A stretch of 44,778 bases of DNA from Candidatus Taylorbacteria bacterium RIFCSPLOWO2_01_FULL_45_34b (GTDB lineage: Bacteria; Patescibacteriota; Minisyncoccia; Phycocordibacterales; DSPV01), in contig MHRY01000048.1 in the NCBI GenBank assembly GCA_001822675.1, positions 1 through 44,778 of the forward strand, given 5' to 3'. A program made the position numbers and the translations under genes. Within the stretch, counting starts at the first letter, position 1. Every line of letters begins with the position of its first letter. Positions 11,385 to 41,819 of this stretch are shown here, piece after piece. Under the pieces are notes generated by a model. The model was not told the origin of the DNA. It did not search any database and saw only the letters and a list, made by a program, of their open reading frames with translations.

Positions 11385-11391
11385 CTCCACA

Positions 11392-11431
11392 AATTTAGCA
11401 AATACCAGTGATAGCAAGCATATGCTAAATT
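11392..11431 (+). repeat. Conserved-loop hairpin, copy 2 (AATTTAGCA-22 nt-TGCTAAATT)
   Basis: It lies 8 nt after the typA stop. See the match to 1219..1260. Confidence 0.6.
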
Positions 11432-11527
11432 TTAATTTCTAGATTTTTAAAAAATCATACACAACAATTATTTACGGTCGGAGTGGATTGTTGTGGTGTG
11501 TGAAAAAAGAAATAAAGATTGAATGAG

Positions 11528-12087
11528 AAAAAAGCCTCGTCCTCGAGCAGACTCGGGACGGGGCAAGGTGGTAATGAACTGTTTCACCTTAATAGGAACC
11601 TCTCTCACCAAAATTCCTCTTCAGAAATGAGAAATTCATTCCAACATCTGAAAAAGAGGGTATGGTGTGTGGACATCTCAAGTTGATCTGATCATCTCCA
11701 TACCCTCTCGAGTCAACCGAAGCTGACTCAAAGCGTTTGTCTGTAGAGGTCTGACCTCTACAGATTTGAAAGAGCTACGGGTGGGGTGAAAAAACTTCCA
11801 AATATGGTTCTCATTTCTCCCCGCCCGTTTTCCTGTCTCTGTTAGACAAAGACAAGAAAGTGACAGCAGCAGAAGACTAGCGAGAAAGCTTCCAAAACTG
11901 AGGAAGCTTATAGCTTCTGGGACGGAAAAGTGTCCTCCGCCTAAGGCGGAGGAAGTGTGAGTTAGTGGTAATTTCAAGTTAATTGACAATATCTCTCACA
12001 CAAAATCGTGGTGGGTAATGGACTTACTCAGTTTAATCGAGCTTCTCTCCCACCACTCCCCCGTCTTAAACGGGAGAAAAATCGTCT
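11528..12087 (-). ncRNA. Unclassified large structured RNA, paralog 3 of 3 (about 560 nt)
   Basis: On the minus strand: promoter TTGACC (12117..12122)-17-TAAGTT (12094..12099) and terminator CCCCGTCCCGAG-TCTG-CTCGAGGACGAGG plus T6 (11528..11568). Blocks shared with paralog 1 are 11951..11965 = 1515..1529 (15 of 15), 11743..11772 ~ 1795..1824, 11698..11729 ~ 1847..1879 and 11611..11627 = 1950..1966. Confidence 0.7.
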
Positions 12088-12122
12088 GGCTAAAACTTAC
12101 CACGTCAATTGATTAAGGTCAA

Positions 12123-12158
12123 CAAAACCCTTCTCGACAAAAGTCGAGAAGGGTTTTG
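12123..12158. terminator. Bidirectional intrinsic terminator
   Basis: CAAAACCCTTCTCGAC-AAAA-GTCGAGAAGGGTTTTG is a perfect 16-bp stem downstream of the RRM gene. Confidence 0.8.
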
Positions 12159-12208
12159 TTCGTGACTTTTAATTCCAGAATCTACATTCTAGAATCTAAA
12201 ATCTACTT

Positions 12209-16076: not shown

Positions 16077-16170
16077 ACGCTAAACTATAGCACAAAAAAG
16101 TAATCTAGTAGACACTTGCTTTTTGGAAAATAATGCTATACTTTTTCAAACAATACATAATATATTTAAC

Positions 16171-20949: not shown

Positions 20950-21061
20950 CATCGGACAACTAATGATCTTTGTACGCCCCGCGACCATCCTCGGTCGCGG
21001 GATTTCTTAAGGCTGTAAGGCTGAGCCTTACGGGGCTTAGTCGATATGGACGCCAACGTCC

Positions 21062-21131
21062 AAAAAACCGCACCCGATTCTCATCTGGTGCGGTTTTTTC
21101 TTTTTAATGGCAAGGTTCAACCTTGCCATTA
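21062..21131 (+). repeat. Two-part module, copy 2: terminator with an ACCCGATTCTCATCTGGT core, then hairpin TAATGGCAAGGTT-C-AACCTTGCCATTA
   Basis: See 20247..20323. Confidence 0.6.
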
Positions 21132-21370
21132 GATATCATGTTATATTTTTTGTAGCTTTTTAATTTCTTCGGCTAAAAGTTTCTCAAAAGTAATAACTTT
21201 TCGTTTATCTAAATTTTTGTAATTCCCTCGAATATAACTTGAAAAAGAAAGTAGTCTGTTGTCCAATTCAGAATCAAGAGTACTTGGAGGCGAGGCCTCC
21301 AAGTAGAGATGCCCCTCTTATTTCTTGAAGCTCCTGAAGCTAGTGAAGCTAGTGAAGCTAAAAGCTCATC

Positions 21371-37889: not shown

Positions 37890-39851
37890 ATGCTCTCTAT
37901 GAAACAACCCCGCCGGAAAGAAAAAGAAAGAAACACAAATAAACCCCTGGAAAGCATCATAAGTGTCAACTCAAAAGGGGTTGGTTTTGTTGAGCATCCG
38001 GATTTTGAAGATGATATTCGAATCGAGGAAGACAACATGAACACTGCCTTGCACGGCGACACAGTCCGCGTTTCGTATAAAAAAGAAGGACGAGAAGTGA
38101 GGGGTACAGTAACAGACATTATCAAACGCGCTCGAACTCGTTTTGTTGGAAGTGTTGAAAAAAATGACGATCAGTTCACTCTTGTCACCGACGATAAAAG
38201 AGTGTACGTGACCATGCGAATTGTTGGCGGCAATGATGAGATGATTGGCAAAAAAGTGCAGGTTGAAATGGAACCATGGAGTAATCCGAGAGAAAGTCCA
38301 AGAGCCGTGGTACGAAAAATCATTGGCCAAAAAGGCAACAATGATGCCGAAATGGAATCAATCGTGCTCGAGAAAGGACTCGCCATTGATTTTCCGGAAG
38401 AGGTGAAAGCTGAGGCAGATAGAATTGGGAGGGAGGCCGCGATTTCTGCCACAGAAATCGCGGCCCGACGTGACTTCCGCCACACTCCAACCTTCACCAT
38501 CGATCCCGCCGACGCCAAAGACTTCGACGACGCCCTCTCCCTTCGAAAAATATCGGAAGACACCTATGAGGTCGGCGTACACATCGCCGATGTCTCTCAC
38601 TATGTCCGAGAAAACACCCCGCTCGATCGCGAAGCCAGCGCGCGCGGCTGTTCGATTTATCTTGTCGACCGAACCATTCCCATGCTTCCTCCAATACTGT
38701 CAGACAACCTCTGCAGTCTTCTTGAAGGAAAAGACAAGCTGACCTTCTCTGCTGTTTTTACTATGAAACGAACTTCTCGCGGCTGGATTGTGACAGAGCG
38801 CTGGTTTGGAAAAACAATTATCAACTCAAGCAAACGATTCAGCTACGAAGACGCCCAAAAAATCCTCAACGAAAAAACGGGGCGATACTATGAAGAGCTC
38901 AATATTCTAGATGGAATCAGCAAGCAACTGCGCGCCGAAAAATTCAAAAAAGGTGCCATTGATTTTGAGCAAGATGAAGTAAAATTCGTGCTCGACGCCA
39001 CCGGTCGACCGCTCCGAGTCTACAAAAAAGAGCGCCTCGACACGCATAAACTTGTCGAAGAGTTGATGCTTCTTGCCAACCGTGAAGTGGCGGAATACAT
39101 TTATCGTAAAGAAAAAGAAAGCGGCATGCGTAAACCTTTTATCTACCGTATTCATGATCTGCCAAAAGAAGATCGCATCACCGAACTCGCGCTTTTTGTT
39201 AAAGCTTTGGGACACGACCTTCCCATCGGCAAAGAAAAACTGAAAGCCAAAGACTTCAGCGTGCTTTTTGAAAGAATCCGCGGCAAGGGCGAAGAATCCC
39301 TCGTCAAAACCGCCGCCATCCGTTCCATGGCCAAAGCAATCTACTCAACAAAAAATATCGGGCACTTCGGCCTGGCCTTCCCCTACTACACTCATTTCAC
39401 TTCGCCCATTCGCCGCTATCCGGATACGCTAGTACACCGACTCCTCGATGCATATCTTTCAAATAAAAAAATGAGCGCAGAAACAATCCAAAAACTTGAA
39501 GGAAATGCCGCGGCAAGTACCGATCGCGAAATCGACGCGGCCGAAGCAGAACGCCAGTCCGTTAAATTGAAACAAGTCGAGTACATGAAAGAGCGAGTTG
39601 GTCAGACTTTTGACGGAGTTGTTTCAGGTGTTACCGAATGGGGTATTTACGTTGAAGATCGCGAAACAAAATCCGAAGGATTAGTCCGCCTCAAAGACCT
39701 CGAGAATGACTACTACGAAATTGACCAGAAAAACTACCGCGTCATTGGCAAAAAAACCAAAAAGAAATACACGCTCGGTGATCCCGTACGCTTCACAGTC
39801 ATGGGAGCAGACATTGAAAGAAAAACCTTGGATTTCAAGTTAAATTTGTAG
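37890..39851 (+). CDS. rnr: Ribonuclease R
   Basis: Cold-shock-like N-terminus, RNB catalytic domain (TIDPADAKDFDDAL, HIADVSHYV, HFGL..YTHFTSPIRRYPD) and a C-terminal S1 domain. Confidence 0.93.
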   Translation: MLSMKQPRRKEKERNTNKPLESIISVNSKGVGFVEHPDFEDDIRIEEDNMNTALHGDTVRVSYKKEGREVRGTVTDIIKRARTRFVGSVEKNDDQFTLVTDDKRVYVTMRIVGGNDEMIGKKVQVEMEPWSNPRESPRAVVRKIIGQKGNNDAEMESIVLEKGLAIDFPEEVKAEADRIGREAAISATEIAARRDFRHTPTFTIDPADAKDFDDALSLRKISEDTYEVGVHIADVSHYVRENTPLDREASARGCSIYLVDRTIPMLPPILSDNLCSLLEGKDKLTFSAVFTMKRTSRGWIVTERWFGKTIINSSKRFSYEDAQKILNEKTGRYYEELNILDGISKQLRAEKFKKGAIDFEQDEVKFVLDATGRPLRVYKKERLDTHKLVEELMLLANREVAEYIYRKEKESGMRKPFIYRIHDLPKEDRITELALFVKALGHDLPIGKEKLKAKDFSVLFERIRGKGEESLVKTAAIRSMAKAIYSTKNIGHFGLAFPYYTHFTSPIRRYPDTLVHRLLDAYLSNKKMSAETIQKLEGNAAASTDREIDAAEAERQSVKLKQVEYMKERVGQTFDGVVSGVTEWGIYVEDRETKSEGLVRLKDLENDYYEIDQKNYRVIGKKTKKKYTLGDPVRFTVMGADIERKTLDFKLNL

Positions 39852-39870
39852 TGTTTAATTACTACAAAAA

Positions 39871-39920
39871 CCCCGAGGTTGAACCTTTCTGTAGATCCAA
39901 GGTTCAACCTCGGGGTTTTT
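39871..39920 (+). terminator. rnr terminator; short form of the GGTTGAACC-core hairpin (copy c)
   Basis: CCCCGAGGTTGAACCTT-TCTGTAGATCC-AAGGTTCAACCTCGGGG plus T5. Confidence 0.85.
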
Positions 39921-39950
39921 GTAAGTGTCCAGTCTATGCAGATAACGCCT

Positions 39951-39983
39951 GGCCGTCTTCCGTTCACGGGAAGCGGCCTTTTT
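39951..39983 (+). terminator. Second intrinsic terminator, 30 nt after the rnr terminator
   Basis: GGCCGTCTTCCG-TTCA-CGGGAAGCGGCC plus T5. Confidence 0.7.
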
Positions 39984-40110
39984 GATTTCAATATTGGATT
40001 TTGCATTTACTTAAAATATGCTATTCTAAACAATAGATGCACAACGAACAGGCTCGCTCCCGACACGCGGCCACCCAGCAAAACTTGGGCGGCCTCTTTA
40101 CATAACCACT

Positions 40111-40180
40111 AAGGCTAAACCTTTCTGTAGATCCCCGCCTGCGTCCGACTTCAAACGGGCAGGCAAGGTTTAGCCTCGGA
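40111..40180 (+). repeat. GGTTGAACC-core nested hairpin, long form (copy b)
   Basis: It shares the exact 17-mer AACCTTTCTGTAGATCC with 39882..39898. Relative to the short form it carries a ~29-nt inner hairpin insertion. Confidence 0.65.
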
Positions 40181-40228
40181 GCTTTTAGAATTCTTTACTT
40201 ATTTTGCCCATTATGCTATACAAGAAGT

Positions 40229-40324
40229 GCGGCTTAAGAGCTAGCCCGCAAGATAAGAGATGCGTGACAAGGTCTCGAGTCTTCAGAGTGGCCTCCAACT
40301 GCTCCTTGGACGGCCACTTTTTTC
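40229..40324 (+). ncRNA. Putative small RNA, unit a of a tandem array
   Basis: TTTACT-17-TATACA (40194..40222), a 5' hairpin TGCGGCT..AGCCCGCA, and terminator GTGGCC..GGCCAC plus T7. Confidence 0.45.
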
Positions 40325-40359
40325 TTGCATAAAAATTTGATTCTTGATAACCTAACTTC

Positions 40360-40439
40360 GTGGAGGTTTGACCAACTCCACAACGCTGAAGGGCCACGGT
40401 AGCCGGATTCCCTAGAGGATTGGGGGATCCGGCTTTTTT
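40360..40439 (+). ncRNA. Putative small RNA, unit b
   Basis: TTGCAT (40325..40330)-17-TAACCT, a 5' hairpin GTGGAG..CTCCAC, and terminator GCCGGAT..ATCCGGC plus T6. Confidence 0.5.
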
Positions 40440-40489
40440 CTTTGCATAATTACTTGCATAAAAATGAAAGTTCGATATGATAATTCCTG

Positions 40490-40550
40490 TGGACATTGGA
40501 ATGTTCACATCGCATAATCCGGACTCTTCGCTTAGGGGAGTCCGGTTTTT
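40490..40550 (+). ncRNA. Putative small RNA, unit c
   Basis: TTGCAT (40454..40459) with an AT-rich -10 (ATGATAAT), a 5' hairpin TGTGGACAT..ATGTTCACA, and terminator CCGGACTC..GGAGTCCGG plus T5. Confidence 0.5.
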
Positions 40551-40601
40551 CTATTATGTAAATCACTTGCAGAAAAAACGGCGATTGGGTATCCTAGGAC
40601 G

Positions 40602-40684
40602 TGTGGCACCCGTTGTGTCCACATGGAACAGCTACCGGACCCTCCTTTCAACACTCCTCGTGAAAAGGAAGGGTCCGGTTTTTC
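40602..40684 (+). ncRNA. Putative small RNA, unit d
   Basis: TTGCAG (40567..40572)-17-TATCCT (40590..40595), a 5' hairpin GTGG..CCAC, and terminator CCGGACCCTCCTTT..AAAAGGAAGGGTCCGG plus T5. Confidence 0.5.
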
Positions 40685-40766
40685 TTTTATAAAAAGAGAC
40701 ACAAGAAAAACCGCTCCAAGCATGTACTCGGGGCGGCTTTTTTAATAAAACTCTTTATTTTTCTTT

Positions 40767-41819
40767 TCAAACCTCAAAAATCTTGGTCTGAATCCACTTT
40801 GAGACAAGACTAACAACTTCTTCTGTCGTCTCTTCGATCATCCAAACGCCAAGATCGAGGGTCAAATTGCCTCCGCCAATTCCCCTTCCATCAGAGGAAA
40901 GTTTGGCTCCACAAGATGATGATGGCAGACGCTCACGGAGAAAAATGTCGAGCGGATTGGTGATATCCGCGTTCCGAGCACTAATCCGGACCATCTTATC
41001 GATGATACCCCACACAACGACGAGCGTGACCCCGCTCATGCGAATAAGATCATCAGCAATGCTTGAGAGATCATCGCCATCAGATGAGCTGATCTTGCCT
41101 ATGTGCGTCACCAATTTACCACCCTGGACGACTTTATTTCGAAGTGCCCGTTCCACATTCACAAAATGGCTTTGCGGGAGCGGGTACCGGAAAAGTTGCG
41201 TCAAGTCCTGATTCGAGACCGCCGATGTCAGAACATTGTAGGCCAAGCGGTCGCGCTCGAAGCAGTCGGTGAGACTGCCTGTATCGGTGTGAATGCCGAG
41301 AGCAAGAAGCAAGGCGACAGTCTGATTGGTGTCTCCAAAACCAAAACCGAGCGACTGAATAAGTTCAGTGAGTATTGTCGAGGCCGAACCAACGTCCTCA
41401 ATCCAAACAAAGGTCTCATCCCTCTCCTTTATTTCACTGCCACGATGGTGGTCGATGACAATGAATGGATCGATTCTCTGGTCTGTCTGTGCCAGTAACC
41501 GGCCATCAGTGACTGAAGATGAATCAACAAGGATAACATTGTGGTTATCGCAGACACTGAACGATTTCATCGGCTTCATCCTTTTGAGGAGATCAAACCG
41601 ATTCACAATCGCTTGATTTTGAGGATGGCTTATTGACCCAGCGTAGAAGGTATTCACTTCGAGACCATTTTTCGGCCTAAGTTGGTTTACGAGCCATGCG
41701 ATGCCGCGGGCCGCTCCAAGCGCGTCGGGGTCAACCTGCGCGATAACGATTGAAATGTTCCCAGTCGCATTTTCGATAAGGCCACGAAATTTGGTAATTC
41801 TGTCTTCTGTTAGATTCAT
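40767..41819 (-). CDS. DHH-family phosphoesterase (NrnA-like nanoRNase/pAp phosphatase)
   Basis: DPDALG, VDSS, VIDHHRG, HTDTG and a DHHA1-type GGGN motif. Confidence 0.85.
   Translation of the reverse strand: MNLTEDRITKFRGLIENATGNISIVIAQVDPDALGAARGIAWLVNQLRPKNGLEVNTFYAGSISHPQNQAIVNRFDLLKRMKPMKSFSVCDNHNVILVDSSSVTDGRLLAQTDQRIDPFIVIDHHRGSEIKERDETFVWIEDVGSASTILTELIQSLGFGFGDTNQTVALLLALGIHTDTGSLTDCFERDRLAYNVLTSAVSNQDLTQLFRYPLPQSHFVNVERALRNKVVQGGKLVTHIGKISSSDGDDLSSIADDLIRMSGVTLVVVWGIIDKMVRISARNADITNPLDIFLRERLPSSSCGAKLSSDGRGIGGGNLTLDLGVWMIEETTEEVVSLVSKWIQTKIFEV

Follow-up and report, generated by a model that had tools for sequence, protein, structure and literature searches.

Homologous small regulatory RNAs (sRNAs) occur as tandem siblings in several bacteria, as with LhrC1-4 in Listeria, OmrA/OmrB in E. 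coli, PrrF1/PrrF2 in Pseudomonas, AbcR1/AbcR2 in Rhizobiales and NgncR_162/163 in Neisseria, and in RybB, OmrA/B and MicC conservation and function reside in the extreme 5′ end. Patescibacteria, also termed the candidate phyla radiation (CPR), have genomes of about 1 Mb. Sibling (multi-copy) sRNAs have been reviewed (PMC4211561). For Patescibacteria, our reading of the literature found no description of regulatory RNAs. Here we analyze the gap downstream of the RNase R gene rnr in a stretch of 44,778 nucleotides (hereinafter the window) from Candidatus Taylorbacteria bacterium RIFCSPLOWO2_01_FULL_45_34b, a groundwater member of the Patescibacteria (assembly GCA_001822675.1, contig MHRY01000048.1). 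This gap, which separates rnr from a convergent gene for a DHH phosphoesterase, extends over 915 nt without a credible open reading frame (ORF), and we read it, with some reservation, as probably a lineage-specific and fast-evolving cluster on the + strand, in which the five candidate sRNA genes, u0, ua, ub, uc and ud, would have their own sigma-70-type promoters and intrinsic terminators. Repeats, promoters and targets were sought in the 45-kb window, and relatives were compared through their RNase R loci; labels of the form L0xx designate the compared loci or contigs.

The gap, or island, is set apart by the density and orientation of its terminators. Eight hairpins with T-runs lie between rnr and the DHH gene, of which that of the DHH gene alone is on the − strand, and five of the eight end the promoter-like units u0, ua, ub, uc and ud, each of 65-160 nt. 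The island has seven such + strand sites in 915 nt; outside it the density is about 0.8 per kb of window, so that the enrichment is roughly 9-fold and one-stranded. A generic scan recovered five terminator-like sites in the island vs 1.6 ± 1.3 in shuffles, and with looser settings the strong − strand sites were only the two bidirectional hairpins at its ends. Against dinucleotide shuffles, the folding energies gave z-scores of −3.4 (u0), −2.8 (ua), −4.5 (ub), −5.0 (uc) and −5.5 (ud), compared with −11.6 for the rnr terminator and −2.5 for an orphan terminator that follows it. Reading and folding every piece thus bore out the hairpin and terminator architecture reported in an earlier note on this DNA, including the orphan terminator at 39951-39983 and a TTGCAT-led unit that closes in a nested GGCTAAACC/GGTTTAGCC hairpin. 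The features of the locus are:

37890-39851, + strand: rnr, encoding RNase R (RNB, CSD2 and S1 domains in Pfam)
39863..39923, + strand: rnr terminator, a perfect 25-bp hairpin between an A-run and a T-run, with bidirectional potential; copy 1 of a hairpin repeat
39951..39983, + strand: orphan terminator, GGCCGTCTTCC..GGAAGCGGCC + T5, with no promoter ahead of it
40001..40027, + strand: u0 promoter-like site, TTGCAT (40001-06), a 15-nt spacer including TGc, and TATTCT (40022-27), i.e., an extended −10
40035..40070, + strand: u0 5′-terminal module, AGATGCACAACGAACAGGCTCGCTCCCGACACGC (nhmmer E = 5e-8)
40069..40099, + strand: u0 internal hairpin, GGCCACCCAG/CTTGGGCGGCC, followed by TCTTT (from folding), which may be a weak terminator
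40099..40186, + strand: u0 3′ nested hairpin + T4; copy 2 of the hairpin repeat, into which an inner hairpin of 29 nt is inserted
40194..40323, + strand: ua, with TTTACT (40194-99), a 17-nt spacer and TGcTATACA (40214-22)
40288-40323, + strand: ua terminator, GTGGCC..GGCCAC + T6
40324..40439, + strand: ub, with CTTGCATAAAAAT (40324-36), TGaTAACCT (40345-53), 5′ hairpin (40360-40381) and terminator (40402-40439)
40453..40550, + strand: uc, with CTTGCATAAAAAT (40453-65), TATGAT (40476-81), 5′ hairpin (40488-40509) and terminator (40519-40550)
40566..40683, + strand: ud, with CTTGCAGAAAAAA (40566-78), TATCCT (40590-95), 5′ hairpin (40600-40625) and a long terminator (40635-40683)
40706..40743, − strand: DHH-gene terminator, CCGCCCCGAG..CTTGGAGCGG + T5, with a T-run on the + side too
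40767-41819, − strand: DHH phosphoesterase gene, convergent to rnr

Three of the units form a family. When the units are aligned with each other, as the earlier note had proposed, ub, uc and ud can be matched from the −35 element through the T-run (local alignment z = 6.7 for ub-uc and 4.5 for uc-ud), and by this measure they are paralogues from promoter to terminator. Identity falls to about 50% in the transcribed bodies, so what the siblings have conserved best is the −35 block CTTGCAkAAAAA, which is near-identical in all three; the 13-mer CTTGCATAAAAAT is exact in ub and uc, agrees at 11 of 13 positions in ud, and has no other exact copy in the window. uc has an additional TTGCAT at 40442-47, and its 16-nt spacer to TATGAT corrects the earlier note. 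Common to the three are a 5′ stem with GUGG/CCAC and a terminator base of CCGGA/UCCGG. The inner pairs of the 5′ stem differ and yet remain complementary (AG/CU in ub, ACAU/AUGU in uc and CAC/GUG in ud), giving stems of GUGGAG/CUCCAC in ub, GUGGACAU/AUGUUCAC in uc and GUGGCAC/GUGUCCAC in ud, beside GUGGGU/ACCCAC in unit v3 of the sister-lineage locus L090 (see below). The loops and the linker between the stems are divergent. Units are spaced 113-133 nt apart, with a terminator for each. A covariance model (R1) trained on ub, uc, ud and L090 v3 scores the three siblings at 64-72 bits; its match in L026 (E = 0.005), considered as an extra sibling, proved to be an ordinary bidirectional terminator. 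Sibling sRNAs built on a shared scaffold would be expected to show the pattern seen in ub, uc and ud.

The frame that the earlier note had extended to a single family of four to five copies (TTGCAT/G plus an A-run, a GTGGA..TCCAC hairpin and a CCGGA..TCCGG terminator) holds for units b, c and d and fails for unit a, leaving three siblings plus two unrelated units. Instead of the common elements, ua has its own −35 and −10 (TTTACT-17-TGcTATACA), its own 5′ stem (GCGGCU/AGCCCGC) and its own terminator, and its predicted transcript, from ~40229 to 40323, folds into three hairpins. The u0 RNA is predicted to span ~40035-40186. Its 3′ hairpin and the rnr-terminator hairpin are direct repeats of each other (D3 and D6; 81-83% identical) that differ by two compensatory pair changes (T-A to C-G and G-C to A-T), and the exact 17-mer AACCTTTCTGTAGATCC is confined to these two hairpins. 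The rnr terminator itself has arms that are 100% complementary, T5 and a folding energy of −42.6 kcal/mol; so strong a terminator should stop read-through, and each unit would therefore have to start its own transcript.

Judged from its sequence, the island is non-coding, in agreement with the earlier statement that it holds no credible ORF. Mechanical ORFs of 63-107 amino acids (aa) span it on both strands, but none has a Pfam match, their dicodon coding scores lie between −0.38 and +0.10 vs about 0.25-0.6 for most window genes, and strong terminators sit within every one of them. Annotation pipelines disagree on these ORFs, with one of 71 aa called on the + strand (ENA/JGI) and two of 63 and 103 aa on the − strand (NCBI). 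The 71-aa ORF recovered no homologue except itself among 5.8 billion proteins, and the 107-aa ORF none among 1.84 billion representatives, save one weak multi-stretch match (E = 1.6e-4).

The candidate RNAs likewise could not be assigned to any known family, as had been noted before. With Rfam at gathering thresholds across the whole window, the island has no match, a group I intron being the only match of that level, and its best matches at permissive E-values (0.02-0.03), to models of plant miRNAs, are of a generic long-hairpin type and fall far short of the threshold. LhrC/rli, RsaE, 6S, SRP, tmRNA, T-box and riboswitch models do not reach the gathering threshold in the island. tmRNA is often encoded near rnr-smpB; a tmRNA or tRNA reading was rejected, with ARAGORN finding neither in the window and Rfam giving no match. 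We also rejected a cis-regulatory leader (riboswitch, T-box or attenuator), as the terminators precede the next promoter-like block and, lastly, a convergent gene, with no same-strand ORF, and a type I toxin-antitoxin or small-protein gene, as no ORF is conserved among the window, L090 and the Verrucomicrobiota contigs described below and the ORFs lack homologues. The whole island has no similarity in phage or plasmid records.

Several aquifer metagenome scaffolds and assembly GCA_001820985.1 (MHRP01000004.1) contain DNA identical to that of the window. The RNase R of the window (653 aa; annotated 3 codons shorter in the protein collection) finds its best matches from named genomes in Parcubacteria, Taylorbacteria and Paceibacterota metagenome-assembled genomes, at 52-56% identity, and only two protein clusters among 5.8 billion proteins exceed 58%, namely P0002 (64%) and P0003 (63%). 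The P0002 lineage (L090, L091, L092 and L096) keeps the synteny OMP decarboxylase-S16-rnr-...-SMC and lacks both the DHH gene and a gene for a 187-aa protein found near the island in the window. Its gap after rnr is 738 nt long, ORF-free, and comprises five units (v0-v4 in L090) with seven + strand terminators; the gene after the island is convergent in both lineages, and in L090 there is no separate rnr terminator ahead of v0. The P0003 lineage has no island. In about 30 other Patescibacteria RNase R loci the gaps are mostly <350 nt with 0-2 terminators, BLAST with the island as query revealed no homologous island in 80 RNase R loci from GTDB genomes, and a 710-nt gap after rnr in L001 was on inspection of a different nature. 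The island, being found in the window and the P0002 lineage and not in the other loci compared, is therefore specific to a small clade and was kept across considerable divergence. A search of related genomes for the array had been proposed earlier, and a sister lineage indeed has an island of five units in the corresponding position; however, only u0 and v0 are clearly orthologous (local alignment z = 14.2). Beyond this pair, there is faint similarity of v2 to the sibling terminators and of v3 to the sibling 5′ stem, and the orphan terminator resembles the terminators of v0 and v4 (z = 3.3 and 4.4). Separately, 40 nt of the Taylorbacteria contig L025 (930-969), inside the rnr coding region, are 85% identical to the rnr terminator hairpin, probably by chance or through a shared palindrome.

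The orthology of u0 and v0 centers on a module of 40 nt at the predicted 5′ end. A metagenome scan with this u0/v0 motif as query recovered the L090 lineage again and two soil contigs (L094 and L095), which their signal peptidase groups with Verrucomicrobiota (Limisphaerales-like); a third, related contig (L097), reached via the signal peptidase, also has the motif. The copies of the module are:

Window, 40035-40070: diverged copy in u0 (TGTA to GG, and one extra C)
L090, 8010-8049: v0
L094, 1292-1253, − strand: Verrucomicrobiota
L095, 1008-1047: Verrucomicrobiota
L097, 5640-5679: Verrucomicrobiota

L090 v0 and L094 are identical at 39 of 40 positions, and every pairwise local alignment starts from the first A and extends over 34-40 nt. 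The homology of u0 and v0 begins at the predicted +1, behind promoters that are not homologous, and the promoters ahead of the module are unrelated between the two phyla. In L094, L095 and L097, AGATGCACAACGAACATGTACTCGCTCCGACACGCAAACA follows a promoter of the TTGCCA-17-TATTCC type at a distance of 6 nt and the module continues into the ATG of a gene whose secreted product carries a proprotein-convertase P-domain, the third-codon-position changes between L094 and L097 indicating that the downstream sequence is coding. The reading frame that starts with the AUG at +3 is 22 codons long in the window copy (u0); in L090 it has 13 codons. Because the frame is shifted in the window copy and a stop appears at codon 4 in L097, the constraint looks to be at the nucleotide level. 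An operator or palindrome reading of the 40-mer was rejected, as GAACATGTAC is not retained in the window copy. The leaders of the Verrucomicrobiota have no relevant Rfam match, the module has no match in viral contigs, an nhmmer profile of it found no further copies in the compared loci, and more distant Verrucomicrobiota lepB loci (L099-L102) have neither the module nor the synteny. We consider the 40-mer the strongest single argument that u0/v0 would be transcribed from the predicted start and possess a functional 5′ end. It is conceivable, if speculative and distinctly improbable, that this 5′ end is a regulatory module exchanged between phyla, or that a Patescibacterium with a reduced genome, and probably symbiotic, uses it to imitate the mRNA leader of another organism or as a decoy for it; in that case the module would be a binding site for a widely distributed factor or RNA, and the island would capture such modules and provide them with promoters and terminators.

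Strains differ within the island. In two scaffolds (L084 and L086), the substitution A40073G converts the sole A·C mismatch of the u0 hairpin to a G-C pair. In L088 the rnr terminator passes directly into the last part of the u0 3′ hairpin, with 39921-40163 (243 bp) missing, and this strain is thereby without the orphan terminator and most of u0. The junction falls between the diverged hairpin copies, and thus recombination between terminator hairpins adds or removes units; between the window and the L090 lineage, the content of the island turns over quickly.

As for promoters, the terminators of the siblings are clear, and the promoters proposed for them are weak consensus matches together with the conserved 13-mer. 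u0 and ua share a TGnTAnnnT extended −10 with sites upstream of the genes at 16116, 19970 and 20354, and the L090 lineage has better promoters (TTGCAT-17-TATAAT, TTGCTT-17-TAAAGT and TTGACT-17-TACTGT). Given that generic scans were negative, as detailed below, the promoter calls rest on position, on CTTGCATAAAAAT and on the comparative evidence from u0.

Taking these observations together, we propose that ub, uc and ud were born by tandem duplication and that their common promoter block suggests common control. The GUGG/CCAC 5′ stem and the CCGGA/UCCGG terminator stem would be the scaffold, with the diverged loops and the inter-stem linker as the specificity-determining parts. u0 would be older, shared with the sister lineage, and defined by a 35-40-nt, probably single-stranded 5′ end. 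The RNAs may act in trans by base-pairing, via their variable or 5′-terminal single-stranded segments; alternatively, the conserved stems might titrate an RNA-binding protein, with the RNAs acting as sponges. The cluster as a whole would change fast via recombination between terminator hairpins. CCUCC-like tracts are present in ud, ua and L090 v0, but we do not rely on an anti-Shine-Dalgarno mode because most window genes lack a Shine-Dalgarno sequence and many look leaderless.

Several results weigh against a cluster of functional sRNA genes. A strict sigma-70 scan picks none of the promoters proposed in the window, including those of the earlier note, and in L090 picks only a site in the v4 promoter region (TTGACT-16-TAGTAT); in neither island do the strict promoter counts exceed those of shuffles; and the loose pattern TTGNNN-N15-19-TANNNT is no denser in the island than in the window's other intergenic DNA. 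In an intergenic survey of the window the usual −35 was TTGACT, and TTGCAT is therefore a variant that matches it at four of six positions. Target prediction from the unit segments, which had been suggested for the unpaired parts, gave duplexes (RNAduplex) with the 38 start regions of the window that were no better than those of shuffled RNAs, and no complementary target for the u0/v0 module was found in the window. The covariance model R1 finds no further copy in 379 kb (the window plus related loci). The absence of u0 from L088 implies that it is dispensable, at least there. Finally, with one unit recognizably conserved between the lineages, the others could be evolving neutrally.

An alternative view is that the gap is a non-functional by-product, i.e., a recombination-prone spacer with duplicated, decaying terminator hairpins and AT-rich DNA in which promoter-like hexamers arise by chance. 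Such a spacer would accommodate the duplication of the hairpin copies D3/D6 inside the island, the loss of 243 bp by one strain via recombination between hairpin copies, the four of five units not recognizably conserved between the two lineages and the lack of enrichment of promoter-like patterns. Yet in a compact genome, and with short gaps downstream of rnr in about 30 relatives, it would have to account for an island of 740-915 nt in two lineages whose RNase R is 36% different, for compensatory changes that keep the stems, for a sibling −35 block better conserved than the bodies and for the strong constraint on the 40-nt 5′ module of u0; we hold it to be rather unlikely. A cis-acting role, either as a stack of rnr terminators insulating the convergent DHH/SMC genes or as a long structured 3′ untranslated region protecting the rnr mRNA, appears to us more doubtful still. 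The + strand hairpins all point in the direction of rnr, the next gene is convergent in both lineages, and L090 has no separate rnr terminator before v0, all as such a role would have it; but the first hairpin, with its perfect 25 bp and T5 (−42.6 kcal/mol), makes six more superfluous, other Patescibacteria manage with 0-2 terminators, and both the repeated promoter block and the start of the u0 homology at the predicted +1 are left unexplained.

A reading of the units as genes for very small proteins, translated from mRNAs with no leader or almost none, is suggested by the many genes with a −10 box 6-10 nt ahead of the ATG, by the AUG at +3 of u0 and by GUG near +1 of uc and ud. This we regard as highly improbable, given that the frame and lengths of u0 are not conserved among the window, L090 and the Verrucomicrobiota although the nucleotides are, that ub yields three codons and the ORF of uc would cross a strong terminator, and that there are no homologues and the coding scores are low. 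A CRISPR- or TIGR-like array of guide RNAs invites comparison since TIGR-Tas loci have been reported in CPR bacteria, some as tandem stem-loops (PMC12045711), so that stem-loop arrays of this type do occur in Patescibacteria, and since the sibling 5′ stem contains UG...CCA. The likeness is that of tandem hairpin-containing non-coding units in Patescibacteria; it ends there, for TIGR units are ~36 nt within one transcript (PMC12045711), whereas the island units are 113-133 nt apart with a terminator after every one. Tandem periodicity is absent (TRF, 0 rows), a repeat finder recovered the promoter and terminator blocks only, with no repeat family beyond them, and the regular repeats (~36-nt units or 25-36-nt repeats) and adjacent Tas or Cas gene that mark TIGR and CRISPR loci are both lacking, the neighbors being judged by sequence match. 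Among the five neighbor proteins scanned (OMP decarboxylase, RNase R, the DHH protein, the 187-aa protein and SMC), there is no Pfam Nop match; the 187-aa protein has no Pfam match at all and no informative PDB sequence match, and the sister island is without its gene. A guide array is thus the remotest of these explanations, and next to negligible.

Other parts of the window have features of their own. Most of its genes are without a Shine-Dalgarno sequence, and in many a −10-like box stands as close as 6-10 nt to the start codon (e.g., 37890, 19923, 16076 and 20008), that of rnr abutting and overlapping the ATG. This suggests that mRNAs with no leader, or with a very short one, are widespread. 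More long ORF-free gaps with several hairpin+T-run units occur at 6536-7346, 11385-12208 and 20950-21370, and the genome may carry more small-RNA-like genes than the rnr-linked island. A repeated structured element (…CAAACAAAATTTTTmCTCGCAAGAGGArGTGGCGGGGGAAGTA…CCCrCCAC + T-run) looks T-box- or attenuator-like, with no Rfam T-box match at E ≤ 0.5; one copy is just upstream of the ORF 1503-2093. These elements and the intron noted above are placed as follows:

92-375, − strand: complete group I intron (Rfam, 84 bits), with no rRNA or tRNA host gene detected around it
225-770, − strand: 181-aa ORF with a weak HNH-endonuclease match, overlapping the 5′ part of the intron
1380-1478, + strand: repeated structured element, in an ORF-poor gap
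6808-6895, + strand: repeated structured element, in an ORF-poor gap
11778-11831, + strand: repeated structured element, in an ORF-poor gap
12056-12002, − strand: repeated structured element, in an ORF-poor gap

If the cluster of sRNA genes downstream of rnr is real, minimal cells would be investing nearly 1 kb in riboregulators, and the island would be a natural example of the birth of sRNAs by tandem duplication and their loss by recombination between terminators. As a dense cluster kept in place, its five candidate genes are short and concrete targets. The 40-nt module raises the question of what recognizes an RNA 5′ end conserved across phyla, and this cross-phylum module appears to be the part most worth following up. 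With respect to sRNAs with a 5′ seed (RybB, OmrA/B and MicC), u0/v0 are alike in that conservation is limited to the first 35-40 nt from +1, followed by a variable body and a terminator; they differ in that the same 40 nt head a protein-coding mRNA in another phylum, and we know of no classical seed sRNA whose 5′ end is shared in this way.

The closest described systems are the tandem sibling sRNAs. Such families consist of at least two homologous small non-coding genes per genome, and here these are ub, uc and ud, with ua and u0 standing outside. As in the named examples, the homologous small genes are arranged head-to-tail and each ends in an intrinsic terminator, the promoter of each being, in the island, a predicted one; scaffold stems and the promoter block are kept, whereas the other segments have diverged; and the set is restricted to a lineage. 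The island differs from them in having no sequence or Rfam relationship to the named examples, in placing its three siblings among two unrelated units, and in lying in a genome largely without Shine-Dalgarno sequences, where the usual target site may not apply. Within a phylum for which we found none described, the island would accordingly represent the tandem sibling kind of sRNA cluster, joined by unrelated neighbors.

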